A stretch of DNA of 32,000 nucleotides from NCBI RefSeq assembly GCF_003010495.1, contig NZ_CP027570.1:630001-662000 (forward strand). Direction: 5' to 3'. The notes beneath the pieces were generated by a model. The model was not told where the DNA came from. It saw only the letters and a list, made by a program, of their open reading frames with translations, and ran no database searches. Numbering within the stretch: the first letter of the stretch is position 1; every line of letters starts with the position of its first letter. The position numbers and the translations under genes are program-made. The stretch comes from Megasphaera elsdenii DSM 20460 (GTDB lineage Bacteria; Bacillota; Negativicutes; Veillonellales; Megasphaeraceae). This document shows, in pieces, positions 11,654-29,996 of the stretch.

Positions 11654-11665
11654 GGAGGAATGAAC

Positions 11666-13040: not shown

Positions 13041-13079
13041 TATAGGTATAAAATACTCTAAATATTCAGGTGATAAATC

Positions 13080-13670: not shown

Positions 13671-13688
13671 GCAGGAGGGATGACCGCA

Positions 13689-14210: not shown

Positions 14211-14248
14211 AAAAAAGGGCTTGTCGCATGTGCGACAAGCCCTTTTTT
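14210..14248. terminator. bidirectional rho-independent terminator between convergent genes
   Basis: A7, then GGGCTTGTCGCA (14217..14228), TG, TGCGACAAGCCC (14231..14242), then T6. This is a perfect 12-bp stem. Confidence 0.85.
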
Positions 14249-14249
14249 A

Positions 14250-14666
14250 CTACCCACTGATAATCCCTGTGATTTCGGCTTTGGTCTGGTTATTGTTGAT
14301 TTTCTTTTCGTAGCCTTTCAAAATCAGGCATCCCAGGATGCCGCCGACGATCATGCCGGCGAAGGCCGTCATTTCCGGTGCTACCTGCCACGAACCACCC
14401 AGCAGGTAGCCGAGGATGCCGCAGACGATGACCAGCAGCAGCGGCACGCCGAAGCAGATGATACCTTTGACGCCCATGCCGGCATCGGGGATGTTGAACT
14501 GTACGTATTGCCCTTTTTGGGCCCCGATGGGGTTCACAGCGTCGATGACGACATTGTCGGCACACATGCTGTCGCTGCAGGGCGAATATAGATTATTGCG
14601 GTTGGTCTGTATCTTGACCAGCCCGTTCGGGCATACTTCTTCGACGACGCCCGTTCCTGTTCTCAT
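14250..14666 (-). CDS. RseC/MucC-family (SoxR-reducing system) membrane protein
   Basis: 138 aa. An N-terminal beta-rich domain with Cys residues (EVCPNGLVKIQ...CSDSMC) is followed by two hydrophobic helices, the layout of PF04246-type proteins. Confidence 0.7.
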   Translation of the reverse strand: MRTGTGVVEEVCPNGLVKIQTNRNNLYSPCSDSMCADNVVIDAVNPIGAQKGQYVQFNIPDAGMGVKGIICFGVPLLLVIVCGILGYLLGGSWQVAPEMTAFAGMIVGGILGCLILKGYEKKINNNQTKAEITGIISG

Positions 14667-14692
14667 AATAAAGTACCTCTCTTTTTTCAGGA

Positions 14693-15337
14693 CTAAAAGC
14701 CCAGATTTTCCCCAACCAAGATGACCTTGATACGGCCCTGGGGCTTACAGATCCGCGTCCGGACGACTTGGGCACAGACGCTGTCCGGTCGGATGCAGTG
14801 GCCACACATGCCGGTTTTGGCACAAGGCGTGCCGACGCCGGGGAAGCGTCCGATATTCTGCGGCGAAGCGACGGTATGCGCCCGTTCGATGCCCGCTTCG
14901 ACGGTCGGGACGACTTTATTCATACCGACGATGGCGATGACCTGTTTCGGCCCATAGCAAAGGGCGGCGACGCGGTTGCCGTTGCCATCGATATTGATGA
15001 GCTGCCCGTCCTGGACAGCGGCGTTGGTCCCCATGAGGAACGTATCGCAGAGCAGGGCCTTGCGCATCAGTTCGACCCGTTCTTCCGGCGTCTTGGCCGA
15101 ATCGCGGTCGATGACCGGATTGTGTTCCAATACGTAGGGCCGCAAGCCGATTTCATTGATGGATACGGAACCGCCCCAGGACACGACATCCGTTTCGGGA
15201 ATATACGAAATGGCCTGTTTCAAGGCTTCTTCCTTGGTCGGACAGTACACGGCTTCAAAGCCGCGGGCTGCGAATTTCTTGGCCACTAAGGGCCCCTTGA
15301 TGTCATACATGCGGTGCATCATATCTGTTCTATCCAT
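14693..15337 (-). CDS. LUD-domain (YkgG/LutC-like) protein
   Basis: 214 aa. The stretch LMGTNAAVQDGQLINIDGNGNRVAAL...IAIVGMNKVVP is typical of lactate-utilisation LUD/DUF162 domains. The RBS is AAAGGAGGAG. Confidence 0.8.
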   Translation of the reverse strand: MDRTDMMHRMYDIKGPLVAKKFAARGFEAVYCPTKEEALKQAISYIPETDVVSWGGSVSINEIGLRPYVLEHNPVIDRDSAKTPEERVELMRKALLCDTFLMGTNAAVQDGQLINIDGNGNRVAALCYGPKQVIAIVGMNKVVPTVEAGIERAHTVASPQNIGRFPGVGTPCAKTGMCGHCIRPDSVCAQVVRTRICKPQGRIKVILVGENLGF

Positions 15338-15350
15338 AATAACTCCTCCT

Positions 15351-15749
15351 TTACTTTGCCAGCATCATTTCTGCCTTCGCTTCGGCAGCCGGCGTACCAT
15401 CGGCATGGGTGATTTTCCCTTTCATGATGAACAGGCGGCCGCGATGGACTTCCGGCCAGCCTTCGACTTTGACCGTTTCCCCGATGCGGATAGCACTGCG
15501 GAAACGGATTTCCAGCCGCGCCGTATATGCCGGTTTCCCAGCCTTGCGGAACACGTAGTCCCCCATGACTTCATCTAACAGGGTACTCGTCAGGCCGCCA
15601 TGCATGCGGTCTCCGTAACTTTCATGTTCGACTTTCGGCGTAAAATAAGCGACGCAGCGATTGCCGTCCAGCTTCATGTCCAGCTTCAGGCCAATCGGGT
15701 TATCGCGGCCGCAGCCAAAACAATGATTGGTTTCATACGCAGTTTCCAT
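15351..15749 (-). CDS. PaaI-family (hotdog fold) thioesterase
   Basis: 132 aa. It has NHCFGCGRDNPIGL and HGGLTSTLLDEVMG motifs. The RBS is GGAGGGTGA. Confidence 0.8.
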   Translation of the reverse strand: METAYETNHCFGCGRDNPIGLKLDMKLDGNRCVAYFTPKVEHESYGDRMHGGLTSTLLDEVMGDYVFRKAGKPAYTARLEIRFRSAIRIGETVKVEGWPEVHRGRLFIMKGKITHADGTPAAEAKAEMMLAK

Positions 15750-15841
15750 AACATCACCCTCCGTATATTCTTCGTTCTATCCTTATTATACTATACTTGG
15801 CAAGCCCTCCTATGTATTTGAAATTAATTATCATATTATCA

Positions 15842-15870
15842 TTGACAATCAATATCAAATAAGCTATACT
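15842..15870 (+). promoter_or_regulatory. candidate sigma-70 promoter for DUF3793-flavodoxin
   Basis: TTGACA (15842..15847), a 17-nt spacer, then TATACT (15865..15870). Confidence 0.5.
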
Positions 15871-15898
15871 TACAGTATCAAAGCGAAAGGAGCGGCAA

Positions 15899-16462
15899 TT
15901 GGATATGAACCTGGATTACGTCTTAATAACCCATTGTTCGCCTACTCTTGCAGGGCTTAAACAGGCATCCCTTCTCTGTCTGCCCCGCTTAGGCAACGGC
16001 TGCACTTATGATAAAATAATTGAAAAATATAATCATAAATACAACCCTAAAGGCTTGTATTTCCGCATCTTATATGCCTGTCCCCAACGCACCCTGCTGT
16101 ATGTATACCGGCCGGCCAGGGTTCGGACTTATGTACAGCAACGGGACATTTCTTCATTTTTGCAGCAATTCGGTTATCAAGACTGCCAGGACATATCGGC
16201 CCTGCTGGACCGTCTTGCCGCACGCTTTGCAGAAGGCGGCTGTTTCCCTCATGAATCGGGCATTTTCCTCGGCTATCCCCTGGAGGACGTGTGCGGGTTC
16301 ATCGCCAACAAGGGAAACCACGCCAAGCTCTGTGGCGAATGGAAAGTATACGGCGACGCTCATGCTGCCGCCCGCACTTTCCATCGCTATACGTGCTGCC
16401 GGCAAGACTATTTGGACCGCTTTGCCGTTGGGACAACATTAGACTCGCTCATCGTAGCATAA
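15899..16462 (+). CDS. DUF3793-family protein
   Basis: 187 aa. THCSPTLAGLKQASL and PHESGIFLGYPLEDVCGF resemble DUF3793 proteins, which I recall often sit next to flavodoxin genes. The start is ambiguous (TTG 15899 or ATG 15905). Confidence 0.65.
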   Translation: MDMNLDYVLITHCSPTLAGLKQASLLCLPRLGNGCTYDKIIEKYNHKYNPKGLYFRILYACPQRTLLYVYRPARVRTYVQQRDISSFLQQFGYQDCQDISALLDRLAARFAEGGCFPHESGIFLGYPLEDVCGFIANKGNHAKLCGEWKVYGDAHAAARTFHRYTCCRQDYLDRFAVGTTLDSLIVA

Positions 16463-16474
16463 GGAGGATTTATC

Positions 16475-16888
16475 ATGGTAGAAATCGTTTATTGGAGTGG
16501 TACAGGTAATACAGAAGCAATGGCTAATGAAATCGAAGCCGCCGTCAAAGCGGCCGGTGCTGATGTAGAATCAGTCCGCTTTGAAGATACTAACGTCGAT
16601 GACGTAGCCAGCAAAGACGTCATCTTGCTCGGCTGCCCGGCTATGGGTTCGGAAGAATTGGAAGACTCCGTCGTCGAACCGTTCTTTACCGACCTGGCTC
16701 CGAAATTAAAGGGCAAAAAAGTCGGCCTCTTCGGCTCATACGGCTGGGGCTCCGGCGAATGGATGGATGCCTGGAAGCAGCGCACGGAAGATACCGGCGC
16801 CACGGTCATCGGTACGGCTATCGTCAACGAAATGCCGGATAACGCCCCGGAATGCAAAGAATTGGGCGAAGCCGCTGCGAAAGCATAA
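16475..16888 (+). CDS. short-chain flavodoxin
   Basis: 137 aa, MVEIVYWSGTGNTEAMANEIE...NAPECKELGEAAAKA. This matches my memory of the Megasphaera elsdenii flavodoxin protein sequence. The RBS is AAGGAGGA. Confidence 0.95.
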   Translation: MVEIVYWSGTGNTEAMANEIEAAVKAAGADVESVRFEDTNVDDVASKDVILLGCPAMGSEELEDSVVEPFFTDLAPKLKGKKVGLFGSYGWGSGEWMDAWKQRTEDTGATVIGTAIVNEMPDNAPECKELGEAAAKA

Positions 16889-16926
16889 AAATCAGAAAAC
16901 AACTTCACATTCATTCTCCTCTTAAT

Positions 16927-16959
16927 AAAAGGGCTTGTCGCACGACGACAAGCCCTTTT
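16927..16959 (+). terminator. rho-independent terminator
   Basis: AAAA, then GGGCTTGTCG (16931..16940), CACGA, CGACAAGCCC (16946..16955), then TTTT. Confidence 0.8.
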
Positions 16960-16960
16960 A

Positions 16961-16990
16961 CGTGGTTAGTAGCTAGTGGCTAGCTGCTGA
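16961..16990. repeat. 7-nt-periodic TAG/CTAG tract
   Basis: In CGTGGTTAGTAGCTAGTGGCTAGCTGCTGA, TAG occurs at 16967, 16974 and 16981, with an extra one at 16970. Confidence 0.45.
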
Positions 16991-17170
16991 CGGCTTAAAA
17001 GGGCTCGTATTTCGACGATGAACGACCTGCGTTTACTTTCTATCAAGTATATATGCTATATAGGCACGATTAAGCATAACTCTCATCCTTCTCATTTGCC
17101 TAGGGTATGTTAAAATAGGAACGTACTATTTCATCCTTATTTTTTTTCTAATCCTAAAGGAGGATTTTGT

Positions 17171-19342
17171 ATGAAAGACCAAGTCTTTTCGATTTTGCAG
17201 GCTGTCGGCCGCAGTTTCATGCTGCCCGTCGCCATTCTGCCGATTGCCGGCTTACTCCTCGGCATCGGGGCTTCCTTCACCAATGCGACGACCATCCAGA
17301 CCTATGGACTGGAAAGCATCCTCGGAAGCGGCACGATGCTCCATTCACTGCTCACCATCATGAGCGATGCCGGCAATATCATCTTCGGCAACTTACCGAT
17401 TATCTTCGCCGTCGGCGTCGCTATCGGCATGGCCAAGCAGGAAAAAGAAGTCGCTGCCTTATCGGCCATGATTGCCTTTTTCGTCATGCACGCCTCGACC
17501 AACGCCGTCCTCAAATTGACAGGCAAAGTATTGGCCAACAATACCGTAGCTCCCGATGTCCTGGAAGGTACGATTGCCAACGTCTGCGGCATCATGTCCC
17601 TTCAGGAAGGCGTCTTCGGCGGTATCATCGTCGGCATCGGCGTCGCCTACCTGCACAACCGCTATCATAAAATCGTCTTGCCCAACGCCCTGTCTTTCTT
17701 CGGCGGGTCGCGTTTCATCCCCATCATTTCCACCGTCGTCTACATGTTCGTCGGCATCGCCATGTACTTCGTCTGGCCAGTCGTCCAGAATGGTATCTTC
17801 GCCCTCGGCGGCCTGGTCACGGGGACGGGCTATATCGGCACGTTGATTTTCGGTATCATCAAGCGGGCCCTCATCCCCTTCGGCCTGCATCACGTCTTCT
17901 ACCTGCCATTCTGGCAGACCGGCGTCGGCGGCTCGATGATGATCGACGGCAACCTCGTCCAGGGCGGCCAGAACATCTTCTTCGCCCAGCTTGCATCGCC
18001 TAACGTCACCCACTTCAGTGCCGATGCCACCCGGTATTTCTCGGGTGAATTTATCTTCATGATCTTCGGCCTGCCCGGCGCTGCCCTGGCCATGTACCGC
18101 ACGGCTAAACCGGAAAAACGGAAAGTCGCCGGTGGCCTGCTCTTGTCGGCAGCCCTGACTTCCATGTTCACAGGAATCACGGAACCGATTGAATTTTCCT
18201 TCCTCTTCGTCGCTCCGATGCTTTTCTACGTCCAGGTCATCCTGGCCGGTGCGGCTTACATGATTGCCCACATGCTGAACATCGCCGTCGGCCTGACCTT
18301 CTCTGGCGGCCTCCTGGACTTGTTCATCTTCGGCATCCTGCAAGGGGAAGCCAAGACCAACTGGATGTACATCATCCCGGTCGGCATCATCTATTTCTTC
18401 CTCTACTACTTCATCTTCACCTTCCTCATCAAGAAGTTCGACCTCAAGACACCGGGCCGTGAAGACGATGACGTAGAAACGAAACTCTACACCAAAGCCG
18501 ACGTCAAAGCCCGCGATGCCGCTGCCAAAGCCGGCGACGGCGAAGCTACTACCGACGTCGTCAGCCAGGCCATCACCCGCGCCCTCGGCGGTACCCGGAA
18601 CATCACCTCCGTCGACTGCTGTGCTACGCGCCTGCGCTGCTCCGTAGCCGATTCGGCCTTAGTCAACGATGCCGCCTTGAAAGCGACCGGTGCTGTCGGC
18701 GTCATCAAGAAAGGCCAGGGTGTCCAGGTCGTCTATGGCCCGCAAGTCGCCGTCATCAAAGCCAACCTGGAAAGCTATCTGGCAACCAACCCGGCAGACG
18801 GCCCCATCGAAGCCGCACCGGCTGCAGAACCGTCTCCAGCAGCTGAAACCCTGAACGCTTCGGAAACGCCAGCTGAACCGGAAACAGCCGCAGAAAAACA
18901 CTACTTCAATTCTCCCTTCACGGGCAGCCTCCATCCCATTACGGAAGCCCCGGACGAAGCTTTTGCCAGCAAGATGACCGGCGACGGCTTCTTCGTCACC
19001 CCGACCGACGGCACGGTCTATGCACCGGAAGACGGGACGGTCACCTTCGTCTTCGACACAAAACATGCCATGGGCATGACCACAGCCGACGGCGTAGAAT
19101 ACCTCCTGCACATCGGCATCGATACGGTCAAGCTCGAAGGCAAGGGCTTCAAAGTCTTTGTCGAAAACGGCCAGGACGTCAAGAAAGGCGATAAACTGAT
19201 GGAATTCGACGACGAATACATCAAAGCCAACGCCCCGTCCGACGCCTGCCTGTGCATCTTCACCGACCTCGAAGAAGGCAAAGAAGTACACCTGGCAGCC
19301 GAAGGCAACGTAAAAGCCGGCGACCAGGCCGTCTGGTTCTAA
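17171..19342 (+). CDS. PTS glucose-family transporter, fused EIIC-EIIB-EIIA
   Basis: 723 aa. An EIIC membrane domain (GRSFMLPVAILPIAG..., GITEPIEF) is followed by EIIB (CCATRLRC), an Ala/Pro/Glu linker, and an EIIA-Glc domain (HAMGMTT..., LLHIGIDTVKLEG). The sugar specificity (Glc or GlcNAc) is not resolved. Confidence 0.88.
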   Translation: MKDQVFSILQAVGRSFMLPVAILPIAGLLLGIGASFTNATTIQTYGLESILGSGTMLHSLLTIMSDAGNIIFGNLPIIFAVGVAIGMAKQEKEVAALSAMIAFFVMHASTNAVLKLTGKVLANNTVAPDVLEGTIANVCGIMSLQEGVFGGIIVGIGVAYLHNRYHKIVLPNALSFFGGSRFIPIISTVVYMFVGIAMYFVWPVVQNGIFALGGLVTGTGYIGTLIFGIIKRALIPFGLHHVFYLPFWQTGVGGSMMIDGNLVQGGQNIFFAQLASPNVTHFSADATRYFSGEFIFMIFGLPGAALAMYRTAKPEKRKVAGGLLLSAALTSMFTGITEPIEFSFLFVAPMLFYVQVILAGAAYMIAHMLNIAVGLTFSGGLLDLFIFGILQGEAKTNWMYIIPVGIIYFFLYYFIFTFLIKKFDLKTPGREDDDVETKLYTKADVKARDAAAKAGDGEATTDVVSQAITRALGGTRNITSVDCCATRLRCSVADSALVNDAALKATGAVGVIKKGQGVQVVYGPQVAVIKANLESYLATNPADGPIEAAPAAEPSPAAETLNASETPAEPETAAEKHYFNSPFTGSLHPITEAPDEAFASKMTGDGFFVTPTDGTVYAPEDGTVTFVFDTKHAMGMTTADGVEYLLHIGIDTVKLEGKGFKVFVENGQDVKKGDKLMEFDDEYIKANAPSDACLCIFTDLEEGKEVHLAAEGNVKAGDQAVWF

Positions 19343-19368
19343 TGGTAAAACCGCAGACCGCAGGTAAG

Positions 19369-19455
19369 CCTCTCCTGATAGGAGAGGTGCCCCGCAGGGC
19401 CGAAGAGGTTGAACCCCTCAGTCACCTTTGCTGACAGCTCTCCTGATAGGAGAGC
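19369..19455. repeat. two copies of the hairpin module CTCTCCTGATAGGAGAG
   Basis: CCTCTCCTGATAGGAGAGG (19369..19387) and GCTCTCCTGATAGGAGAGC (19437..19455). Each has an 8-bp stem and a 3-nt loop. Confidence 0.6.
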
Positions 19456-19483
19456 CAACGGGCCGTGAGCCACGAACCCTTAC

Positions 19484-19520
19484 AAAAAAAGCGCTGTCGC
19501 GATGCGACAGCGCTTTTTTT
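19484..19520. terminator. bidirectional terminator shared by the PTS gene and 4hbD
   Basis: A7, then GCGCTGTCGC (19491..19500), GAT, GCGACAGCGC (19504..19513), then T7. Confidence 0.8.
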
Positions 19521-19615
19521 AGCAGGCAGCAGCTAGCGGCTAATGGCTCTCCGGGATTCCCGCATGGCCCGGGACGGGCCGCCCACGTGCGGCCCCTACG
19601 ACGAGCCACGAGCCA

Positions 19616-20728
19616 CTAATACAACTTCTTATAAATGCCGTACACCTTATCGTAATCGAGGGGCACAAAACTGTGCTTCATGAGACGCTGCTGATTTTCG
19701 ATGACCGACTTAGCAAATTCCGGCAATTCTTCTTCTTTGACGCCGTATTCATGGAGCGCTTTTTTGGGCAGGATGACGTTGAGCAGTTTTTCCAGTTCTG
19801 CATAGACATTTTCCGGTTCGCAGCCCAGGATATCGGCAATGAAGCGATTCAACTTAGCGATTTCCCCATCTGATTTGATGGACATGTAGCAGTTCATGAC
19901 GCCTGTGAACATGGCGTAGTTCGATTCCCCATGAGGAACATGATATTTCGCCCCTAAGGGATAGCTCATGGCGTGAACCGCAGCGCAACCCGGGACGCTG
20001 AAGGCGATGCCGGCCCAGTTGCTGGCCAGGAGAAAATCTTTCATGAGCGGAATACGGGCTTCCGGACCGTGGTCGCGGATCTGCAAGTACCCTTTGAGGA
20101 TGAGTTCGATGGCGTTATAACTGAAGACGCGGAAGCTGGCGCTGGAATCCGGAGACAAGGCCGATTCGACAGCGTGAACCAGGGCGTCGATGGAGCTGGT
20201 CGCAAAGACCTTGAACGGCAGGGTCTTCAAGAGCTGCGAAATGAGGACAGCCTTGTCGGCATACAGGGCGTTGTCGGCAAGGCCCTTCTTCGTATTGCGG
20301 CTGACCAGGGCCATGACCGATACATTGGTGACTTCGCTGCCCGTCCCGCATGTCGTCGGGATGAGGATGAGTTCCTTTTCTTTTTCCACAGGAATCTTGC
20401 CATCGAATAAATCGAGGACCGGGCTGACCTGCTTCAAGACGAACAACTTGCACAAGTCCATGACCGTGCCGCCGCCGATACCGATGATGCGCTTCACATC
20501 TTTCGGCATATCTTTATAAATGGCTTCGGCCATTTCATCAGACGGTTCACCCATACCATACTTTTCCTGGAACAAGACGTGGCACGTAAGGCCTAAGTCC
20601 TTAAAATTCGGGTCGAAGATGTACTGATTGGTAATAATCAAATCATCCGCCCCAACCTGCAAATCTTCCACAAACTCCCGGCATGTATCATAAGAGTAAA
20701 TCGTCGGTTTCAACTGTAATTCAATCAT
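19616..20728 (-). CDS. 4hbD: NAD-dependent 4-hydroxybutyrate dehydrogenase (iron-containing alcohol dehydrogenase family)
   Basis: 370 aa. LFQEKYGMGEPSDEM, GIGGGTVMD, PTTCGTGSEVTN, YHVPHGE and the C-terminal YKKLY closely parallel my memory of Clostridium kluyveri 4HbD. Confidence 0.8.
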   Translation of the reverse strand: MIELQLKPTIYSYDTCREFVEDLQVGADDLIITNQYIFDPNFKDLGLTCHVLFQEKYGMGEPSDEMAEAIYKDMPKDVKRIIGIGGGTVMDLCKLFVLKQVSPVLDLFDGKIPVEKEKELILIPTTCGTGSEVTNVSVMALVSRNTKKGLADNALYADKAVLISQLLKTLPFKVFATSSIDALVHAVESALSPDSSASFRVFSYNAIELILKGYLQIRDHGPEARIPLMKDFLLASNWAGIAFSVPGCAAVHAMSYPLGAKYHVPHGESNYAMFTGVMNCYMSIKSDGEIAKLNRFIADILGCEPENVYAELEKLLNVILPKKALHEYGVKEEELPEFAKSVIENQQRLMKHSFVPLDYDKVYGIYKKLY

Positions 20729-20793
20729 GTAGATACCCCTTTCTGTTGGTTAATGGATTCATCGCCTCTAGTGTAACAAAGACCGAAACATTT

Positions 20794-20823
20794 TTGCAAG
20801 AGCCCGGTTGACCGTGATATAAT
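20794..20823 (+). promoter_or_regulatory. candidate promoter of tRNA-Sec
   Basis: TTGCAA (20794..20799), an 18-nt spacer, then TATAAT (20818..20823), about 12 nt before the mature tRNA 5' end. The palindromic TTGCAA could also act as a -35 for the divergent 4hbD. Confidence 0.4.
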
Positions 20824-20834
20824 AAACCTGTCCT

Positions 20835-20931
20835 GGGGGAGGATGGGTTCTGGTGTTCCCTCTGGTCTTCAAAACCAGCATGAGGGGTTAAGAGCTTCTC
20901 AGGTGGGTTCGATTCCCACACTTCCCCGCCA
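20835..20931 (+). tRNA. selC: tRNA-Sec (anticodon UCA)
   Basis: The anticodon stem CTGGT/ACCAG encloses the loop CT-TCA-AA. The D-arm has a 6-nt/4-nt/6-nt layout (GGGTTC TGGT GTTCCC). A long extra arm (TGAGGGG/CTTCTCA, 7 bp) is present, as is the T-arm GTGGG-TTCGATT-CCCAC. The acceptor GGGGGAG pairs with CTTCCCC, followed by discriminator G and an encoded CCA. The 5' end is accurate to within 1 nt. Confidence 0.8.
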
Positions 20932-20967
20932 AAAAAAGGCGCTGTCACACGAAGACAGCGCCTTTTT
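20931..20967 (+). terminator. rho-independent terminator after tRNA-Sec
   Basis: A7, then GGCGCTGTC (20938..20946), ACACGAA, GACAGCGCC (20954..20962), then T5. Confidence 0.8.
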
Positions 20968-21042
20968 GAGTTTTAAGTTTGAAGTTGAAAGTTTGATGTG
21001 GATGGGAAAAAATTTAAAAGCCATTGTCTCAAACATCATACA

Positions 21043-21234
21043 TCAAACATTCTTACTTGATTTTTCATCCGTCTTGTCTGCTATCTCCTTCGTTTCATCG
21101 GTATTGACAGCTTCCTTGAATTCACGGAGACTCTTGCCCAAAGCCCGGCCGATCGTCGGCAGTTTCCCCGGTCCAAACACAATTAGGGCAATAATTAAAA
21201 TGAGCAGTAATTCCGGTGCACCTAAGCCAAACAT
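21043..21234 (-). CDS. tatA: twin-arginine translocase subunit TatA/E
   Basis: [42 protein letters not shown] is a canonical TatA. I prefer the second ATG (21234), which is 7 nt after GGGGGA. Confidence 0.85.
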
Positions 21235-21276
21235 CGTCATTCCCCCTATAATACCATTACTTCCTTACATGACTTC

Positions 21277-21305
21277 ATGATACCCTTATCCAGGCAGGCT
21301 GTCAA
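21277..21305 (-). promoter_or_regulatory. candidate sigma-70 promoter of tatA
   Basis: Minus strand reads TTGACA (21305..21300), a 17-nt spacer, then TATCAT (21282..21277). Confidence 0.45.
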
Positions 21306-21396
21306 TGAAGGCGCGCGGGTAGGAAAATTATGTCGCCAAAATATAATATATCTATCGTCCGTCCATAAAAAACGAAATTGTATACAGGAAATATAT

Positions 21397-21447
21397 AAAA
21401 GATAAGCTGTCTTACAAAGGGTATCTTCATAAGACAGCTTATCTTTT
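21397..21447. terminator. long perfect hairpin terminator at the end of the low-GC minus-strand operon
   Basis: AAAAGATAAGCTGTCTTA (21397..21414) pairs with TAAGACAGCTTATCTTTT (21430..21447). It begins 2 nt after the TAA of the UGA-containing ORF, and both sides are A/T-rich. Confidence 0.65.
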
Positions 21448-21448
21448 G

Positions 21449-21787
21449 TTATTCAAAACCTTTTTCACGCGTTATGGCCATTCCCTGAGCTCCTTCTATT
21501 GTCAGCCATTGATGGAATAAAAATCGCTTCACATGGATAACAATAGATTGATATCCTTGTTGAATCTGTAATTTAGGATGATACCAAATAATAATATCAT
21601 CAACTAGCTCAAAAGGATATTCCATTTGTTGACCCGGCTTACCTAAGCCGATTTCTGGAACGTAACTGCCCCAGATTAAATCACCTTTTCAACAACTCCC
21701 TCCAGATGGTTCAAAGGCCAAGGTAACGATGACATTTCCACCATGAGACTGAATATATTGTTTTGCTTGTTCCGTGATAGTAAACAT
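21449..21787 (-). CDS. candidate selenoprotein, 112 codons with in-frame UGA at codon 33 (C-U motif); possibly a 'CC/Se motif family (seleno)protein'
   Basis: ATG 21787..21785 lies 7 nt after GAGGG and 15 nt after the GldA-like stop. Translation gives MFTITEQAKQYIQSHGGNVIVTLAFEPSGGSC, then TGA (21691..21689), then KGDLIWGSYVPEIGLGKPGQQMEYPFELVDDIIIWYHPKLQIQQGYQSIVIHVKRFLFHQWLTIEGAQGMAITREKGFE, then TAA (21451..21449). That is 79 stop-free codons after the TGA in roughly 40% GC DNA, followed by a hairpin. tRNA-Sec is about 0.75 kb away. Both halves are under 60 aa from an ATG, so the ORF track misses it. Confidence 0.55.
21654..21675 (-). other. candidate bacterial SECIS hairpin
   Basis: On the mRNA, UCUGGGGC-AGUUAC-GUUCCAGA forms an 8-bp stem (two G-U pairs) with a 6-nt loop containing GU. 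It starts 13 nt after the UGA, so the apical loop begins about 21 nt downstream. Confidence 0.35.
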
Positions 21788-21802
21788 CTTGTTTCCCTCA
21801 CT

Positions 21803-22888
21803 TTATTTTCCTAATGCATCAGCCTTCATAATGGCATCATACACTTCATCTGCTGTAATGTCAGCACGCACATTTTTTGTAAACTGAGTTGGTACAGTAG
21901 CTGCTTCCGCAACCAGACGGATTTCTTCTTCTTTTACATCCTTAATCCCTAAATCAGCTAAGCATGAAGGAAGTCCTACCGATTTTATATAGTGTAATAC
22001 TGTGTCCCACTCATCTTTTGGTGCTTTTTCTAAAATAAGCTGCGCGAGTAATCCAAAAGCAACTTTTTCACCATGGGAAGCTCCGTGGGCCTGTGGGACA
22101 TGGGCAAAACCATCATTGATAGCATGAGCTGCCGCAAGGCCTCCCGACTCAAACCCGACACCACTAAGATAGACGCAGGCTTCAATGACCCGTTCCAAAG
22201 CAGAATTTACCTCCTGTTTTTCAACGGCATTGAGCGCTTCCAGTGAATCATTTAATAAAGTTTTATAACATAATGCAGCCAAGGCTAATGCCGTTGCTGA
22301 ACAAGCTCCACGAGCCATGGTTTTAGCCCCACTACGTTGGCAAGCACGTGCTTCAAAATAGGTAGATAAGGCATCCCCCATACCAGAGACCAAATATTTT
22401 TTAGGCGCTTGAGCGATAATCCCAGTATCGACTAAAACGAGATCCGGATTATGTTTCATCATTAAAGCCTTGATAACGACGCCCTGTTCATTGTAAATAA
22501 CAGCTACACTGCTGCACGGTGCATCATTAGAAGCAATAGTAGGGATAATAATCGTCGGCAAATCACCTAAATTAGTAGCCACGGCTTTAGCCGTATCCAG
22601 AGCTTTACCTCCACCTACGCCAATGATAGCATCACAGCCGTGCTGATAAGCTATATCTTGTGCATCAGCGATTGCCTTTTTAGAACATTCACCTTGAAAT
22701 TCAGCATAAAATACGGATTTATTCGCACTATTCAGAGCCTTGTCAATGCGTTCACCAATTCTTCGCTTATTATTAGGTGACAGCAAGACTAAAAAGCTAT
22801 TGCCCATTTTCTTAACATACTTCCCTAATTTATCCAACTCTCCATTGCCTTGCACATAATATCCCGGGGCTTTAATTCCAATCGTCAT
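21803..22888 (-). CDS. glycerol dehydrogenase-family (GldA-like) iron/zinc alcohol dehydrogenase
   Basis: 361 aa with GVGGGKALDTAK, PTIASNDAP, GMGDALSTYFEA, AAHAINDGF and HGEKVAFG. The physiological substrate is not deducible. Confidence 0.82.
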   Translation of the reverse strand: MTIGIKAPGYYVQGNGELDKLGKYVKKMGNSFLVLLSPNNKRRIGERIDKALNSANKSVFYAEFQGECSKKAIADAQDIAYQHGCDAIIGVGGGKALDTAKAVATNLGDLPTIIIPTIASNDAPCSSVAVIYNEQGVVIKALMMKHNPDLVLVDTGIIAQAPKKYLVSGMGDALSTYFEARACQRSGAKTMARGACSATALALAALCYKTLLNDSLEALNAVEKQEVNSALERVIEACVYLSGVGFESGGLAAAHAINDGFAHVPQAHGASHGEKVAFGLLAQLILEKAPKDEWDTVLHYIKSVGLPSCLADLGIKDVKEEEIRLVAEAATVPTQFTKNVRADITADEVYDAIMKADALGK

Positions 22889-22907
22889 GACTCAATACCA
22901 CCTTTCT

Positions 22908-22958
22908 AAAAAAACCTCTCCCAGCCGGGGTACTAGGCTACCCTTACCAAGAGAGGTT
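22908..22958 (-). terminator. hairpin plus U-run between the orphan ORF and the GldA-like gene (internal terminator/attenuator)
   Basis: Minus strand has AACCTCTC (22958..22951) pairing with GAGAGGTT (22920..22913). An inner stem (TACCC/GGGTA) and internal loops lie between, then TTTTTTT. The RBS (AAAGGTGG) of the GldA-like gene follows within about 5 nt, and its ATG is about 20 nt after the U-run. Confidence 0.5.
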
Positions 22959-22976
22959 CCACACAATTAGTAATAC

Positions 22977-23591
22977 CTATGAACAGAAATCAGGCATTTC
23001 TTGAAGACGGCAAACCAATGTGTATACATCTTCTCCGACCCGATAAACGAGTAAATCACGATTTTCGTCGGTACAGGGAATATTCGATTCCTCCCCACCA
23101 TTCAGGTTATCATGACAAATACTGTTCAGGTCTTCAAAAATTTCCATGACGCCCTCTTCTCCTTTGCGGACAATCCGTAAAAGATCATTAAAGTAGAGTT
23201 TATCTTCATCATCATATTTAAAAATAGTACACCAACGGCTTAACAACTCTTCTTCATTCATACCCGTTTTTTGAGAAATCAAAGTCTTTTGAGAAGCTAA
23301 TAAAAGCAGCATGCATGATAAATAAGATTTTACGACCAGTGGGATATGATCCTTAACCTTAGCAAAATACCGGCGATGCGACCAATAGCCATCAAAAGTC
23401 AAATCATTCTTTTCCAAAAACTCTTTGATTCCATCATTGGCCGATACCCCGCAAATCATGAAAAAACGCTTCATTGATTCATTCGTCGACTTGCTTTTCG
23501 CATTCATCAAGCATTTTTTTACGAAGAATTCGCAGACCTCTGTCGTATTCGATTTTGTCAGTTTGCGCAATAAATCACCATAATACTGCAT
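22977..23591 (-). CDS. hypothetical protein, 204 aa (no family recognised)
   Basis: A clean ORF with the RBS CCGGAGG 7 nt upstream, on the same strand as and tightly packed within the abfD operon. The sequence MQYYGDLLRKLTKSNTTEVCEFF...LQEMPDFCS has no motif I recognise. Confidence 0.55.
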   Translation of the reverse strand: MQYYGDLLRKLTKSNTTEVCEFFVKKCLMNAKSKSTNESMKRFFMICGVSANDGIKEFLEKNDLTFDGYWSHRRYFAKVKDHIPLVVKSYLSCMLLLLASQKTLISQKTGMNEEELLSRWCTIFKYDDEDKLYFNDLLRIVRKGEEGVMEIFEDLNSICHDNLNGGEESNIPCTDENRDLLVYRVGEDVYTLVCRLQEMPDFCS

Positions 23592-23625
23592 AGCTCAACC
23601 TCCGGTTGTCAAGAGTCTTCTCTGT

Positions 23626-25074
23626 TTATTTTTCTGCGCCTTCCTTTTCAGCATTCAGTTCTTTTAAAGCTGCAACATTGAAAATCGGGTCAGATTTCGT
23701 ATTGTACAGAGACATTTTACGTTTAAAGAAGTTTTTACCAAATACGAGCAGGCAAAGGACAATGCCAACACCCAGAGCCATAGCAGCCCCACGAGATACG
23801 AGGACGCCACCAATAACACCGGCAACGCCGAGGTCATTAAAAGTCTTGGAACGGAGTACACCGACACGAACGGCAACATAGCCTTGAATCAACATGGTCA
23901 ATGCCAAAGCAATCGGCAGAACCGGCTTAACAAAGCTTACGATAGGAGATAACCAATAGCCAGTGAATGTACCTAAACGGAAAGATGCAACGCCGCCAAT
24001 CAGGCTATCCATCGCTTCACGACCATGTTTATAACGTTCACAAATAACGACCTGCATAGCTGCCCATAACGGACCGCACATGGAAAGGTCAGGGCCTAAC
24101 AAGGACATAACCATATTACGGACACCAACAATAACGTTATTTCTGTTAGCATCGAAATGGATATTTTCATCACCATGACGGAATTCACGAGCTTCATCGA
24201 TCAAGGCGTCGGCCTGAATCAATTCACCAAAGAGTACAACGTAAGTTGCAATGACCAACGGAGCAGCTTGGATATAATAAGTCATACCTGGGAAGCCAAT
24301 GCGTTCAGCAAAAGGACTCCACTGGGTAAAGACTTCAATGAAGTGGGGATGAGTAAAGCCCATTTCAATAGTCGGCCAAGGCAATTCGCCCACCAACGGA
24401 GCAATAATGACGGCCAGAACCATCGCCGGCAATAACCCCAAGTCAGAAATAACCTGAAAAACTTTATTTTTATTCATGATACTCTTGAAATGGTTACTAA
24501 AAGAGCAATAAAAAGCAAAGCCTACAGCAATAGCGATGGTAAATGGATATTTATCAAAGTTACCGCCCGTATTGAATACCAGGCGTACAGCAGCAATACC
24601 GGCGCCGATAAGAATCCCGGATTTCAAAGCATCAGGAACTAAATCGACAACGCGTTTAGCAAGACCCGTAGCACCTAATAAGAACGTGAGTAACCCGAGT
24701 TCAAATTCAAAAGCGATAAGTGCATGCATACGTTCTGCTGTATCATTAGGAAATTCTCCCAACCACAGCAATAACAGCGGAATAGCCGGAGTGATCCAGC
24801 CAGGGACAACAGGGTCCCCTAAGTGAGCATGCCAAGTATATAAGAACCCGTTCATGATAACAATAGTAATAGCGATTTCAAAAGGCATCCCTAAATATTC
24901 TTGCAATACTGGGATGATGCCGAGACAAACGGCACATAACAGCAGCCCTTGAACATAATCAGGCCATTCAAAGCGATAATGAATGAAAGGTAAACGCAGG
25001 ACTAAGTTAAATACGTGTAAATTAATCCCCGGTTGTATTTCGCCTTCTTTTCGTTTATAAACAGGACCAAACAT
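23626..25074 (-). CDS. polytopic membrane permease (family unresolved; possibly NCS2/SulP-like)
   Basis: 482 aa with at least 10 hydrophobic helices and a hydrophilic C-terminal tail. The RBS is AGAGGGG. The substrate is unknown; its neighbours suggest a 4-hydroxybutyrate- or GABA-related solute. Confidence 0.7.
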   Translation of the reverse strand: MFGPVYKRKEGEIQPGINLHVFNLVLRLPFIHYRFEWPDYVQGLLLCAVCLGIIPVLQEYLGMPFEIAITIVIMNGFLYTWHAHLGDPVVPGWITPAIPLLLLWLGEFPNDTAERMHALIAFEFELGLLTFLLGATGLAKRVVDLVPDALKSGILIGAGIAAVRLVFNTGGNFDKYPFTIAIAVGFAFYCSFSNHFKSIMNKNKVFQVISDLGLLPAMVLAVIIAPLVGELPWPTIEMGFTHPHFIEVFTQWSPFAERIGFPGMTYYIQAAPLVIATYVVLFGELIQADALIDEAREFRHGDENIHFDANRNNVIVGVRNMVMSLLGPDLSMCGPLWAAMQVVICERYKHGREAMDSLIGGVASFRLGTFTGYWLSPIVSFVKPVLPIALALTMLIQGYVAVRVGVLRSKTFNDLGVAGVIGGVLVSRGAAMALGVGIVLCLLVFGKNFFKRKMSLYNTKSDPIFNVAALKELNAEKEGAEK

Positions 25075-25132
25075 ATTTTGTCCCCTCTTTCTTTATGAAT
25101 TTAAAAATCAACAGAAAATTTAGATAAAAATA

Positions 25133-25192
25133 GCGCCATGGCCAAGCTATTCGATATGTAATTATCTACGAATAGAACAGCCGCCATGGCGC
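25133..25192 (-). terminator. long intercistronic hairpin after abfT (terminator-like or stabiliser)
   Basis: GCGCCATGGC (25133..25142) pairs with GCCATGGCGC (25183..25192), and the inner arms CTATTCG/CGAATAG also pair. On the minus strand it is followed by TATTTTTAT. Confidence 0.45.
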
Positions 25193-25215
25193 ATGCGTAT
25201 TAAAAACCGCTATTT

Positions 25216-26520
25216 TTATCCTTCAAACTTACAATGGAAGCGTTTTTCAAATTCTGCAATCAATCCTTCTCTAAAATCAGGATGGGCAATCTTAATGAGA
25301 GCAATAGCACGCTGCCGCAAAGTACGTCCTTTAAGAGGAGCGATACCAAATTCCGTAATAATATAGTCTACATCATTGCGGGAGGTCGTAACAGCAGCCC
25401 CTTCATCTAAGAGCGGCACAATCTTAGAAATCTTACCATGACCAGCAGTCGAAGGCATAGCAATAATGGCTTTACCACCCTTTGCACGAGATGCACCACG
25501 AACGAAGTCAACCTGACCGCCGACGCCGCTGAATTGTTTATAGCCAATCATTTCGGCATTGACCTGTCCCATCAAATCGACTTGCATAGCCGAGTTGATA
25601 GAGATGATATTGTCAATTTTAGCTACGACAAAGGGATCATTAGTGTAATCGACACGTTCCATTAATACATCGGGATTGTTATTTACAAAATCATACAGTT
25701 TCTTTGTCCCCATAAGGAAGCAAGAGACAAATTTCCCCTGGTCAATCGTCTTTTTCTTGTTCGTGATAACGCCTTTACGAGCCAAGTCGACAACGCCATC
25801 AGAGAACATTTCGGAATGAATCCCTAAATCCTTTTTATCTCCGAGGAAGGACAAGACAGCATCCGGAATAGCACCGATACCAAGCTGCAGCGTATCACCA
25901 TCATGAATCAGTGATGCTACATATTCCCCAATTTTATGTTCCGTTTCCCCAATTTTAGGCGGTTGCAATTCAATAAGGGGTTCATCTTTTTCGACGATAT
26001 AATCGATATCTTTTAAATTAATGCCATTCCCATAGGTATAGGGCATATTTTTGTTAATCTGTGCAATAACCAGCTTGGCAGCTTCTGCAGCCGGCTGTGT
26101 ATAGTCAACAGAAACCCCATAAGAGCAAATGCCATTTTCATCGGGTTCACTGAGCTGTAAAAAAGCGACGTCAACAGGTAAGGTACCATCTGTAAAGAGC
26201 TTGGGAATTTCATGGAAGAAGCACGGTGTATAATCTCCACGGCCTTCTTCTACGGCTTTGCGAGTTGAGCCACCTACGAACAGGGCATTATGGCGAAAAT
26301 GTTTTTCCATCCCCGGTTGGCAATAAGGAGCTTTCCCCATAGCAACCATATGAACAATTTCAACATTTTCAAGGCGATCTGCCTGGCGAACTAATTCATC
26401 TGTCAAAGCCTGCGCTTCACCACAAGCATGGGTGAAAACAATACGATTGCCGGATTGGACATGGCTTACAGCTTCTTCAACAGATACAATTTTTTCTGCA
26501 TATTCTTTTCTCCAATCCAT
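25216..26520 (-). CDS. abfT: 4-hydroxybutyrate CoA-transferase (acetyl-CoA hydrolase/transferase family)
   Basis: About 434 aa. MDWRKEYAEKIVSVEEAVSHVQSGNRIV, GEAQ, and GGQVDFVRGA near the C-terminal domain fit the Cat2/AbfT type, and it is adjacent to abfD. I trimmed the start to the ATG at 26520. Confidence 0.82.
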   Translation of the reverse strand: MDWRKEYAEKIVSVEEAVSHVQSGNRIVFTHACGEAQALTDELVRQADRLENVEIVHMVAMGKAPYCQPGMEKHFRHNALFVGGSTRKAVEEGRGDYTPCFFHEIPKLFTDGTLPVDVAFLQLSEPDENGICSYGVSVDYTQPAAEAAKLVIAQINKNMPYTYGNGINLKDIDYIVEKDEPLIELQPPKIGETEHKIGEYVASLIHDGDTLQLGIGAIPDAVLSFLGDKKDLGIHSEMFSDGVVDLARKGVITNKKKTIDQGKFVSCFLMGTKKLYDFVNNNPDVLMERVDYTNDPFVVAKIDNIISINSAMQVDLMGQVNAEMIGYKQFSGVGGQVDFVRGASRAKGGKAIIAMPSTAGHGKISKIVPLLDEGAAVTTSRNDVDYIITEFGIAPLKGRTLRQRAIALIKIAHPDFREGLIAEFEKRFHCKFEG

Positions 26521-26543
26521 TACACACACCTACTTTCGTATAA

Positions 26544-26598
26544 CTGACTGACGGCCTGCAACGGAGGAGGAGCAGCCTAGTTGCAGGCATCAGTCAAA
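26544..26598 (-). other. intercistronic stem-loop between abfD and abfT
   Basis: TGACTGACGGCCTGCAAC pairs with GTTGCAGGCATCAGTCA in an imperfect stem of about 15 bp with a 17-nt loop. No U-run follows on the minus strand, so it is probably not a strong terminator. Confidence 0.4.
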
Positions 26599-26679
26599 AT
26601 CACGTCTATATACTCATACTATATTTACTCTGCTCTATTTCATTACGTGAAGGATAGTGATTCCCAGTGTAATATCAAC

Positions 26680-28131
26680 TTATTCTTCAATGTGTGCAAT
26701 AGCTTTAGCCAAGGCTTTCTTCATACGCAAGTTGCCCTGACGGGAAATCATGATACGCTGTGCCTGCGGCGAACCTGCACCGTGCATGGATTCTGTACGA
26801 TAACCAACAGCTGCCGTGCCGAGGCTGAGGTTTTCGATGAGGCGTAAGATTTTGAGACGATTTTCTGTCGATACATTATTAACGCCGCGGAGGTATTTAT
26901 CAATGTACGGCCCAATCTTCGGATCACGGAGGTCTTTTTCAGACGGTGCTGTAACCATCAAGCCACCAGCAATATCTTCGGCTAAACGGACGATTTCATA
27001 GGGGAAGCGCGTAACATTCTGTTTGCAGACGTTTGCCAGGAGCAAATCGATGAGATAGTTGCCTGATTCCGTTTTCGTACCCAATGCCGAGCAAGCAATA
27101 CCGCAAGCATACAGGGTTTCGTTGAGGTGCTGCATTTCAATGATTTTATCTTTAATATGGGAAGCTTTCGGACAGCCATTATAGTCAGCAGCAACCGCAG
27201 CAGCACCGATAAGGACGTCACCTACGCCAACTTTGCAGCCGCCATAGGACTGACGATGATAACCCGCGAAGCGTTCAACGAGGACGCCGGCAAATTCATA
27301 TTCTCCATTCAGATAAATATTTTCGTTCGGGATGAAGACATTATCAAAGATAACCAGAGCTTCCGTACCACCAAATTCAGGGTTGCCCGTATCCATCGGA
27401 GCGCCTTCCATTTTACGAGTATCGCAAGACTGACGGCCAACAATCATGAAAATACCTTCAGCATCTGTCGAGCAGGAGAAGCAGACTGCGTAGTCTTTGT
27501 CATCTTCGCCCATAGAGATGGTCGGCATGACGATGACTTCATGAGAGTTAATGAAACCAGTTTGGTGAGCTTTTGCCCCACGGACTACGATGCCGTCCGG
27601 ACGACGTTCTACAACATGGAGATAGAGGTCCGGATCTGCCTGTGCATGCGGAGCCAAACCACGGTCACCTTTCGGGTCTGTCATAGCGCCGTCAACGGTA
27701 AGGTCTTCCATCTGTACCCGTTTGAGGAATTTCATGAAGTTTTCATGGTATTTCGTGCCATATTTTTTATCCGTATCATACGTCGTGGAGAATACCGCAT
27801 TAAAAGCATCCATGCCAACGCAACGCTGGAAGCAGGAAGCCGTTTTCTGACCACACAGACGCTGCATTTTTACTTTATTCATCAAGTCCGTCGTGCTCTG
27901 ATGAATATGGGTGAAGCGGTTAACACGTTCGCCAGTGTACGGAGAGATTGCTGTCATCAGGTCCTGATATTCAGGCTGCTGAGCCAGATCATACGTCATG
28001 CGGACGGAGTTCATGGACGGACGGAGAATCGGATCATCTGCCGGACACGGAACTTTTTTACCAAACATGTAGACTTGTAAATTTTTCTTTCTCATGCTTT
28101 CGATGTACTGTTCGCCTGTCATTAATGCCAT
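26680..28131 (-). CDS. abfD: 4-hydroxybutyryl-CoA dehydratase / vinylacetyl-CoA delta-isomerase
   Basis: 483 aa. MALMTGEQYIESMRKKNLQVYMFGKKV... parallels the N-terminus of Clostridium aminobutyricum AbfD as I recall it. The size and the abfT neighbour both fit. Confidence 0.88.
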   Translation of the reverse strand: MALMTGEQYIESMRKKNLQVYMFGKKVPCPADDPILRPSMNSVRMTYDLAQQPEYQDLMTAISPYTGERVNRFTHIHQSTTDLMNKVKMQRLCGQKTASCFQRCVGMDAFNAVFSTTYDTDKKYGTKYHENFMKFLKRVQMEDLTVDGAMTDPKGDRGLAPHAQADPDLYLHVVERRPDGIVVRGAKAHQTGFINSHEVIVMPTISMGEDDKDYAVCFSCSTDAEGIFMIVGRQSCDTRKMEGAPMDTGNPEFGGTEALVIFDNVFIPNENIYLNGEYEFAGVLVERFAGYHRQSYGGCKVGVGDVLIGAAAVAADYNGCPKASHIKDKIIEMQHLNETLYACGIACSALGTKTESGNYLIDLLLANVCKQNVTRFPYEIVRLAEDIAGGLMVTAPSEKDLRDPKIGPYIDKYLRGVNNVSTENRLKILRLIENLSLGTAAVGYRTESMHGAGSPQAQRIMISRQGNLRMKKALAKAIAHIEE

Positions 28132-28211
28132 AATGAATCATCCTTTCTTCTTATCATATAATAAAGTTTTGACAGTAGGTTCACACGTTAGTGTGTTTTG
28201 CCTATAGTAAG

Positions 28212-28227
28212 AGCAAAAATCATGCCA
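28212..28227 (-). promoter_or_regulatory. candidate sigma-54 (-24/-12) promoter of the abfD operon
   Basis: Minus strand reads CTTGGCATG-ATTT-TTGCT-C, with TGGCAT at 28227..28222 and TTGCT at 28216..28212. Compared with the consensus TGGCACG-N4-TTGCW it has one mismatch. The predicted start is about 70 nt before ATG 28131. Confidence 0.5.
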
Positions 28228-28409
28228 AGTAGTGCCTTTAATATTTTTATTTTAATTTCTTCCGTGAAAAGCATAGCAACTATCCCATCTTTGAAACTTA
28301 AAAAAATTTTCTCCCTTATTTTGTGCTATATTTCACGTTATTTTTGTTATGTTTATAACGTTTTCCCGTTCCATTTTTGGCTCAAATATTTTGGTTTTTC
28401 GTTCCATAT

Positions 28410-28435
28410 ATGAAACAAATTACCATTTGTTTCAT
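28410..28435. promoter_or_regulatory. perfect 10-bp inverted repeat (candidate activator/operator site)
   Basis: ATGAAACAAA (28410..28419), TTACCA, TTTGTTTCAT (28426..28435). It lies about 185 bp upstream of the minus-strand -24 box and about 220 bp upstream of the plus-strand one. Confidence 0.4.
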
Positions 28436-28656
28436 TTTTAAAACAGTATACATCCTTATATTCGGGGATATTTTCTTTATTCCATCTCGTTTCTTGATAA
28501 AAAATATTCGTAAATCAATATATTTAAAAATATTATTTCATTTATCCTTTTACCCCAACTCTTTATATTTAAAACGTTTATGTAGCACTTTCGTCTTTCA
28601 TCACAGTTTAATTTGTGAATAACAGAACAAATAAATTCAGGCATTTCTTCCAATTT

Positions 28657-28672
28657 TGGCACGATAATTTCA
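28657..28672 (+). promoter_or_regulatory. weaker sigma-54-like -24/-12 element before the Nfu-like gene
   Basis: TGGCACG (28657..28663), ATAA, TTTCA (28668..28672). The -24 box is perfect, but the -12 box has TTTC instead of TTGC. It sits 41 nt before ATG 28713. A sigma-70 -10 (TATAAT, 28676..28681) is an alternative reading. Confidence 0.3.
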
Positions 28673-28712
28673 TATATATAATTAACTACTATAAGTAAGG
28701 ATGTGAATTACC

Positions 28713-29012: not shown

Positions 29013-29016
29013 ATCT

Positions 29017-29748: not shown

Positions 29749-29758
29749 GAGTATTATC

Positions 29759-29995: not shown

Positions 29996-29996
29996 T

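Follow-up and report, generated by a model that had tools for sequence, protein, structure and literature searches.

The minus strand of a 32,000-nucleotide stretch of the Megasphaera elsdenii DSM 20460 genome (contig NZ_CP027570.1, positions 630,001 to 662,000; hereafter the window, whose numbering is used unless a relative's locus is named) carries at 21449..21787 an open reading frame (ORF) interrupted by an in-frame UGA, which we consider, at a probability of roughly 85%, to be a genuine selenoprotein gene that gene callers have missed or cut short. As sixth and last cistron it closes an operon that encodes, in order, 4-hydroxybutyryl-CoA dehydratase (AbfD), a CoA-transferase, two orphan proteins called here mem482 and h204, a GldA-like dehydrogenase and the small protein in question, a 112-residue member of the CC/Se motif family with a predicted selenocysteine (Sec, U) at residue 33 in the motif G-G-S-C-U-K-G-D. 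The ribosome would start at ATG 21787 and, at the UGA (21691..21689), a hairpin that begins 13 nt further on should bring in SelB together with Sec-tRNA(Sec); selenocysteine would then be inserted and translation would run on to TAA 21451..21449.

The layout of the gene is as an earlier sequence-only reading of the window had described it. The stop codon of the GldA-like gene (TAA, 21805..21803) is followed by 15 nt that include, as read from the sequence, a GAGGG ribosome-binding site (21795..21799) and a 7-nt spacer before ATG 21787; 32 codons then lead to ...GGSC, the TGA occupies 21689..21691, and 79 open codons end at the TAA. Around the UGA the protein reads SC-U-KGDLIWGSYVPEIGLGK. The intrinsic terminator that closes the operon, a 23-bp hairpin followed by a U-tract (stem 21447..21397, dG -30.6 kcal/mol, z -9.4), begins 2 nt past this TAA, and thus the operon terminator follows the TAA and not the TGA. 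That 79 codons should remain open by chance had been estimated at a few percent; the event is indeed unlikely, and the estimate was conservative, the computed value being 0.7% from local base composition, with only 0.15% of in-frame shuffles of the post-UGA segment staying open. A sequencing error at the TGA was looked for and is countered by nucleotide identity of the whole ORF, TGA included, in four independent assemblies; these include HE576794.1 (GCA_000283495.2), which has the same ORF, the same GldA-like protein and the same gene order, and which we take to be Megasphaera elsdenii DSM 20460 as well.

Comparison with relatives places the UGA at a Cys column and the codons behind it under selection. 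The reactive loop of the family can be written as C1-x-C2, two cysteine (Cys) columns anchored on a conserved GSYVP, and the UGA of the window gene falls at C2. Homologues align across it with Cys at that column (P0002, P0010, P0011), e.g. the closest relative that bears the family name, a Cys form from Megasphaera sp. DISK 18 / M. massiliensis that is 74% identical and has C-C-C where the window protein has S-C-U. Between the window gene and that of a sister Sec-form lineage (L005), the 78 codons compared past the UGA differ by 18 synonymous and 5 nonsynonymous changes, a ratio of nonsynonymous to synonymous rates (dN/dS) of 0.05; such strong purifying selection shows that the frame there is translated, and the conservation on which the sequence-only reading had made its case depend is therefore found. 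Comparisons with locus L012 were saturated, perhaps misaligned, and were excluded. The TGA itself is retained in at least four divergent lineages with Sec at C2 and in dozens of metagenomic lineages with Sec at C1.

The candidate selenocysteine insertion sequence (SECIS) is a core hairpin at 21654..21675 on the minus strand, an 8-bp stem UCUGGGGC/GUUCCAGA closed by the 6-nt loop AGUUAC, with a free energy of -16.3 kcal/mol and z of -3.5 to -4.1. The loop starts 21 nt past the UGA and has G at position 2 followed by U. Proposed beforehand as an 8-bp hairpin with GU in its loop, it agrees in every particular with the published bacterial SECIS (bSECIS) model (PMC13188914), i.e. an apical loop of 3-9 nt, an upper stem of 4-16 bp, a G in the first two loop positions, a UGA-to-loop distance of 16-37 nt and a minimum free energy (MFE) of <= -7.5 kcal/mol. 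Across five Sec-form sequences of the window's clade, 97.5% of the stem cells are paired and the changes are wobble-compatible. In a clade whose UGA stands 2 codons further 3', the hairpin also stands about 2 codons further 3', and the UGA-to-loop distance is 21-26 nt. Directly 3' of the SECIS hairpin lies a second one, CGGCUU-AGGU-AAGCCG (21635..21650, minus strand), which is disrupted in the Cys forms but 100% paired in the Sec forms, where two C-G<->U-A exchanges that fall on synonymous third positions are compensatory. The loop of this second hairpin lies 45 nt from the UGA, beyond the usual SECIS range, and the hairpin perhaps belongs to the recoding element as an auxiliary part. A further helix that contains the UGA itself is just 83% paired with one compensatory pair and is not claimed.

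Were the TGA a true stop, the gene would be a nonsense allele or pseudogene that yields a 32-residue peptide followed by a decaying relic. Gene callers do treat it so: on the four contigs with the exact ORF the calls are 32-residue and 58-residue pieces or nothing. A relic is nevertheless extremely improbable given the dN/dS of 0.05 in a comparison of two TGA-bearing lineages, the recurrence of that TGA at either Cys column across the family, the specific co-occurrence of the SECIS hairpin with it, the identity of the ORF in four assemblies and the position of the terminator past the TAA.

The UGA might instead be read as Trp, Cys or Gly, through near-cognate decoding or a variant code, and some database entries do have W at the column (P0001, P0015), having come from callers with a TGA=Trp table. 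This too is very unlikely, if marginally less remote than decay. TGA is an ordinary stop in the window, where it ends tatA and the nifU-like gene at their full family lengths; every Cys form has Cys at this column, the classic Sec/Cys pair; and a SECIS-type hairpin at canonical distance is accompanied by a gene for tRNA-Sec (anticodon UCA) at 20835..20931 on the plus strand. Both ARAGORN and Rfam RF01852 (71.7 bits, gathering score 47) find the latter, and it lies 758 nt from the UGA, where about 750 bp had been expected. In the window it sits between a second Fe-dependent alcohol dehydrogenase gene (19616..20728, minus strand) and tatA, and in a Cys-form lineage (L001) it lies at 16828..16920 beside tatA/tatC with a glycine-reductase gene near. 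The tRNA is thus syntenic with tat and not with the selenoprotein gene, and a specific link between the two was rejected.

Across the family, a hairpin that fits the bSECIS model occurs in 28 of 33 unique Sec-form sequences but in 2 of 14 Cys forms, which supports recoding; the counts come from related sequences and not from independent events, but the direction of the contrast is clear. selA, selB and selD are not among the genes of the 32-kb window. A literature search on the Sec machinery of M. elsdenii found nothing usable. On the comparative evidence taken together, the gene is real, is translated through its UGA and carries a SECIS-type element, and we strongly infer that the residue inserted is Sec.

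The family to which the protein belongs is already catalogued. With U33 entered as C, as the sequence-only reading had recommended, the protein scores 43.7 bits (E = 2.2e-11) against NCBIfam NF041239, "CC/Se motif family (seleno)protein", above the curated cutoff of 40 bits that defines membership; the match joins residues 2-99 to profile positions 3-90 of 91 and spans the UGA. The nearest database relatives, P0001 (90% identical) and P0002 (74%), carry Pfam PF28096, and the NCBI family name stands on WP_255304176.1 and WP_230198144.1. Against a Pfam version older than PF28096 the U33C protein gave just a noise match, Cu-oxidase_3 (E = 0.027), which was discarded. NF041239 (Moor_selen_rel) and PF28096 (CC_Se_fam) have in common with the window protein a length of about 110 residues, the Cys/Sec loop and the GSYVP and WL(E/T)xEGA motifs; the difference is that Sec stands at the second Cys column (S-C-U) in the window's Megasphaera clade, while most metagenomic Sec forms are U-x-C. 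No feature of the predicted sequence excludes membership. For NF041239 the selenoprotein table of a 2026 review (PMC13188914) lists CxxU, a motif seen in none of the sequences examined, which have C-U, U-x-C or a lone U. Since the family is thus on record in NCBIfam, Pfam and that review, without an assigned function, the window gene adds one member to a known family. No function statement was retrievable from the 2008 and 2016 papers cited for NF041239.

How the Sec forms appear in databases bears on another reading, that of two small genes, a 32-residue peptide and a 58-76-residue protein from an internal start. When 1.84 billion representatives were searched exhaustively with phmmer, only 47 relatives emerged, and about one third of these are fragments of 60-80 residues that begin just past the motif, which is the signature of Sec forms cut short. 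RefSeq indeed holds 76-residue "hypothetical protein [Megasphaera]" entries, WP_288641615.1 and WP_292296974.1 (P0082, P0083), for Megasphaera Sec forms about 90% identical to the window protein; they begin at an internal TTG just past the UGA, and it is the Cys forms that bear the family name. Two genes are, for all that, scarcely credible: the Cys-form orthologues are single proteins of 111-116 residues over both parts, the NF041239 match runs across the UGA, the fold modelled with AlphaFold2 (AF2) requires strands of both halves, and where the RefSeq entries have their internal TTG (as in WP_288641615.1) the window has TTA.

The chemistry of the loop is best seen across its forms. The Cys-Sec dipeptide that the sequence-only reading had noticed stands in the loop after the second strand, where the family has its Cys-Cys or Cys-Sec motif. 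Cys forms are C-x-C, the nearest to the window protein being C-C-C, C-S-C and C-Q-C. Most metagenomic Sec forms are U-x-C, and some have no second Cys: U-K-S in locus L056 and U-K-T in L070, L075 and L077. The window's clade has S-C-U, and its relative L012/L014 has G-T-U, a loop without any Cys. From these lone-Sec loops it follows that what is conserved across the Sec forms is one chalcogen, Sec at C1 or at C2, the second Cys being dispensable. The vicinal Cys-Sec pair between small residues (G-S-C-U-K-G) recalls the C-terminal Gly-Cys-Sec-Gly of mammalian thioredoxin reductase; unlike the latter, the window motif is internal, its protein has no flavoprotein disulfide-reductase domain, and in the window's family the Cys beside Sec is not conserved even in close relatives (G-T-U in L012).

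Two departures from the usual length of the gene were seen among relatives. In the sister Sec-form lineage (L005 9839..10363, also L006-L010) the TAA of the CC/Se gene is lost through a change of GAATAA to GATAAA, and the ORF extends 62 codons through the terminator region to give a 174-codon frame. An uncultured Megasphaera metagenome-assembled genome (L015 10001..10168) has a shortened Cys-form remnant, ending in FLCGTCKGVRIWGSYVPELEAGRKFE and a stop, that is probably a pseudogene.

The structure was modelled with AF2 on the 74% identical Cys form P0002, at a predicted local distance difference test score (pLDDT) of 91.8 and a predicted template-modelling (TM) score (pTM) of 0.82, the motif loop being the least certain part. 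Its top eight Foldseek matches in the PDB are all IscA/SufA/HesB-like (IscA 1X0G, 1R94 and 1S98; SufA 2D2A; HesB-like 2APN and 1NWB), with probabilities of 0.91-1.00, TM scores of 0.32-0.55 and E from 2e-3. The fold of CC/Se is accordingly predicted to be IscA/HesB-like, with the reactive residue in a flexible loop after strand 2, roughly at the first cluster-ligand Cys (Cys35) of IscA in the model. Members of PF01521 such as 1X0G, 1R94, 1S98 and 2D2A share with it the predicted fold, the secondary-structure order and a single domain of about 110 residues, but CC/Se does not have their C-terminal C-G-C pair, and a conserved WLELEGA motif stands there instead. Membership in the A-type iron-sulfur (Fe-S) carriers (PF01521) was therefore rejected, sequence similarity and C-terminal ligands both being missing, and the protein is described as having an IscA fold and not as an A-type carrier. 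HesB-like selenoproteins (Zhang et al. 2006, PMC1794560) resemble it in the IscA fold, in occurring in anaerobes and in the replacement of a ligand Cys by Sec in some members; they differ in belonging to PF01521 and having the IscA Cys triad positions, neither of which holds for CC/Se.

The sequence-only reading had set the gene in a 4-hydroxybutyrate operon with a GldA-like dehydrogenase, and searches of the neighbouring genes agree. All on the minus strand, these are AbfD, 4-hydroxybutyryl-CoA dehydratase / vinylacetyl-CoA isomerase (26680..28131; 1U8V, E = 3e-234, 781 bits); a 4-hydroxybutyrate-type CoA-transferase of the AcetylCoA_hydro family (25216..26529); mem482, a polytopic membrane protein of 482 residues (23626..25074); h204, an all-helical protein of 204 residues (22977..23591); and the GldA-like Fe-dependent alcohol/glycerol dehydrogenase (21803..22888; 475 bits against NF006941, cutoff 336), which thereby passes the glycerol-dehydrogenase subfamily cutoff. 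Neither orphan has a Pfam or NCBIfam match. mem482 is possibly a substrate transporter, perhaps for 4-hydroxybutyrate, and a candidate new transporter family. h204 is modelled by AF2 as all-helical at pLDDT 86, a search of the PDB with this fold gave no meaningful match (best E = 0.26, TM about 0.2), and its conserved residues are C27, nearly invariant, and the invariant Y90, S92, K102, W120, F124, Y126, F134 and D188. On the plus strand, divergent from abfD, lie genes for a NifU-like (Nfu-type) protein of 99 residues (28713..29012) and for a Cys-rich AF_0334-like domain fused to a MaoC dehydratase (29017..29748), the former domain being a separate 120-residue protein in other CC/Se clusters. 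The abfD/abfT/4-hydroxybutyrate dehydrogenase set of Clostridium aminobutyricum (1U8V) likewise has AbfD, a CoA-transferase and an Fe-dependent alcohol dehydrogenase in one operon. To our knowledge, the 4-aminobutyrate fermentation pathway described for that organism has no small selenoprotein, h204 or mem482 component.

The association recurs well beyond M. elsdenii. A single-protein search with P0002 gave only 4 genome loci, all Megasphaera or spurious, and a narrower alignment search on WLELEGA[KR] gave 56 metagenome loci; neighbours were counted in the 22 lineages whose locus reached 6 kb or more, flanks being at most 6 kb. AbfD is present in 14 of the 22, the CoA-transferase in 14, mem482 in 16, h204 in 13, and the NifU-like and AF_0334-like proteins in 11 each, and one or more of AbfD, CoA-transferase and mem482 occur in 20 of the 22. 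The AbfD-cluster set recurs in other Megasphaera lineages, with Sec and with Cys forms, and in peat, wetland and freshwater metagenomes, mem482 being kept beside AbfD, CoA-transferase and CC/Se from gut to peat. With a hidden Markov model (HMM) of h204, its gene was located in about 30 loci on the strand of CC/Se, which begins about 10 nt after h204 ends. This is the arrangement in most other lineages, while the window's clade has a gldA-like gene inserted between the two. The Cys-form genes of peat bogs (L024-L032) are bordered at one end by a CoA-transferase gene and at the other by genes for a Zn-dependent alcohol dehydrogenase, a succinate-semialdehyde-like aldehyde dehydrogenase and an IclR regulator. 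The contexts of CC/Se are all consistent with a metabolic route that leads from succinate semialdehyde via 4-hydroxybutyrate to 4-hydroxybutyryl-CoA. Neighbour clusters c9, c11, c14, c16 and c52, from high-GC contigs, were discarded as probable antisense ORF artefacts of h204, CoA-transferase and AbfD.

From fold and context, CC/Se is probably a selenol/thiol accessory factor of the pathway from 4-hydroxybutyrate to crotonyl-CoA, usually together with h204. As the most likely specific role we propose, tentatively and at rather less than even odds, that it keeps the oxygen-labile [4Fe-4S]/flavin adenine dinucleotide (FAD) radical enzyme AbfD active by Fe-S delivery or repair or by redox poising. 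This proposal is made because of the IscA-like fold, the presence of [4Fe-4S] clients (AbfD and aldehyde:ferredoxin oxidoreductase, AFOR) and the co-occurrence of NifU-like and Cys-rich proteins. It would be a speculative extension, and one we should not expect to hold in full, that CC/Se and h204, often with mem482 and the NifU-like and AF_0334-like proteins, make up an unrecognised accessory system for AbfD, selenium-dependent in many lineages, in which the selenol of an IscA fold delivers, repairs or redox-poises the cluster.

Several results weigh against a role in AbfD maintenance. The likeness to IscA is at the level of fold only (TM about 0.5, Foldseek E about 2e-3). The U33C protein has no Pfam match to PF01521 (Fe-S_biosyn) at E <= 1, the family profile finds none of the PDB chains at E <= 10, hhalign of the CC/Se family with IscA gives a probability of 0.1%, and the family alignment, which ends in WL(E/T)xEGA, shows no C-terminal Cys-Gly-Cys such as provides cluster ligands in IscA. 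The gene neighbourhood is a link to the pathway and not to a mechanism. Nor is a partner or client universal, since h204 is absent from the peat-bog Cys forms, the L012/L014 Sec forms and the Sec-form loci L037, L040 and L041, and since AFOR, which accompanies h204 and CC/Se in two lineages, takes the place of AbfD at some loci.

Foremost among the rival functions is that of a stand-alone thiol/selenol oxidoreductase, working through a Cys-Sec selenenylsulfide, as at the GCUG end of thioredoxin reductase, or through a strained C-x-C disulfide. Such a protein would pass electrons or detoxify reactive aldehydes or enoyl-CoA that arise in the pathway, and Fe-S clusters would play no part. The vicinal C-U of the window protein, the U-x-C or C-x-C of most relatives, and the missing C-terminal ligands and sequence similarity to A-type carriers all speak for it, and most known bacterial selenoproteins are redox proteins (PMC13188914). 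This reading, to our minds only slightly less probable than the AbfD proposal, is weakened by the several lineages that have Sec and no partner Cys (G-T-U in L012/L014, U-K-S in L056, U-K-T in L070, L075 and L077), from which it follows that an intramolecular redox pair is not required; the fold, moreover, is IscA-like and not thioredoxin-like, and NifU-like and Cys-rich proteins co-occur.

Less probable again is a carrier of sulfur, selenium or metal that serves another gene of the cluster, mem482 or the CoA-transferase, and not AbfD. mem482 is the commonest neighbour (16 of 22 lineages), mem482 or CoA-transferase occurs without detectable AbfD within the flanks in L024, L025, L027, L028 and L040, and TusA and YeeE-like genes adjoin in M. 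massiliensis. Against this, flanks of at most 6 kb make the absence of AbfD weak evidence, and L012/L014 keep only AbfD, GldA and CC/Se, without CoA-transferase or mem482.

The surroundings of the operon show further regularities. The divergent plus-strand cluster at 28713..31722, kept with the AbfD operon across Megasphaera, continues beyond the NifU-like gene and the AF_0334-MaoC fusion with a 78-residue ACP (acyl carrier protein)-like ORF, a metallo-beta-lactamase-fold protein and a LuxE acyl-protein synthetase; on related contigs LuxC and an AMP-binding enzyme come after the LuxE cluster. G+C is 0.35-0.48 over 21000..32000 of the window vs 0.50-0.60 over 1..21000. The low-G+C block comprises the AbfD operon and the NifU/MaoC/LuxE cluster. 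Several Megasphaera species have it in synteny, so it was either acquired long ago or is under compositional constraint.

In gut anaerobes AbfD is a key enzyme when gamma-aminobutyrate (GABA) and succinate are fermented, as it is in archaeal CO2-fixation cycles, and we know of no accessory factor for it. A full-text literature search retrieved no paper that ties AbfD to a selenoprotein. In the searchable literature there also appears to be no report of the association of CC/Se with the AbfD cluster, of h204 as its partner, of its IscA-like fold or of the switch of Sec between C1 and C2 with a co-moving SECIS. The movement of Sec between two Cys columns with the SECIS hairpin alongside is a small case of Sec/SECIS co-evolution. 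Should the speculative accessory system prove real, the AbfD enzyme class would gain its first described factor dedicated to maturation or maintenance, and selenocysteine a new biochemical role.

For the organism, a rumen and gut bacterium that has been well studied, public records lack a real gene or show it cut short, and the same holds for dozens of metagenomic lineages. Because M. elsdenii is culturable, the selenium dependence of the pathway is directly testable. A further selenoprotein is in itself no surprise to specialists; it is the comparative results that yield the family's first testable functional hypothesis. They supply this orphan family with its first such leads, namely a genomic link to 4-hydroxybutyrate/4-hydroxybutyryl-CoA metabolism, a partner, h204, with a nearly invariant Cys, and a predicted IscA-like fold with a single essential chalcogen.

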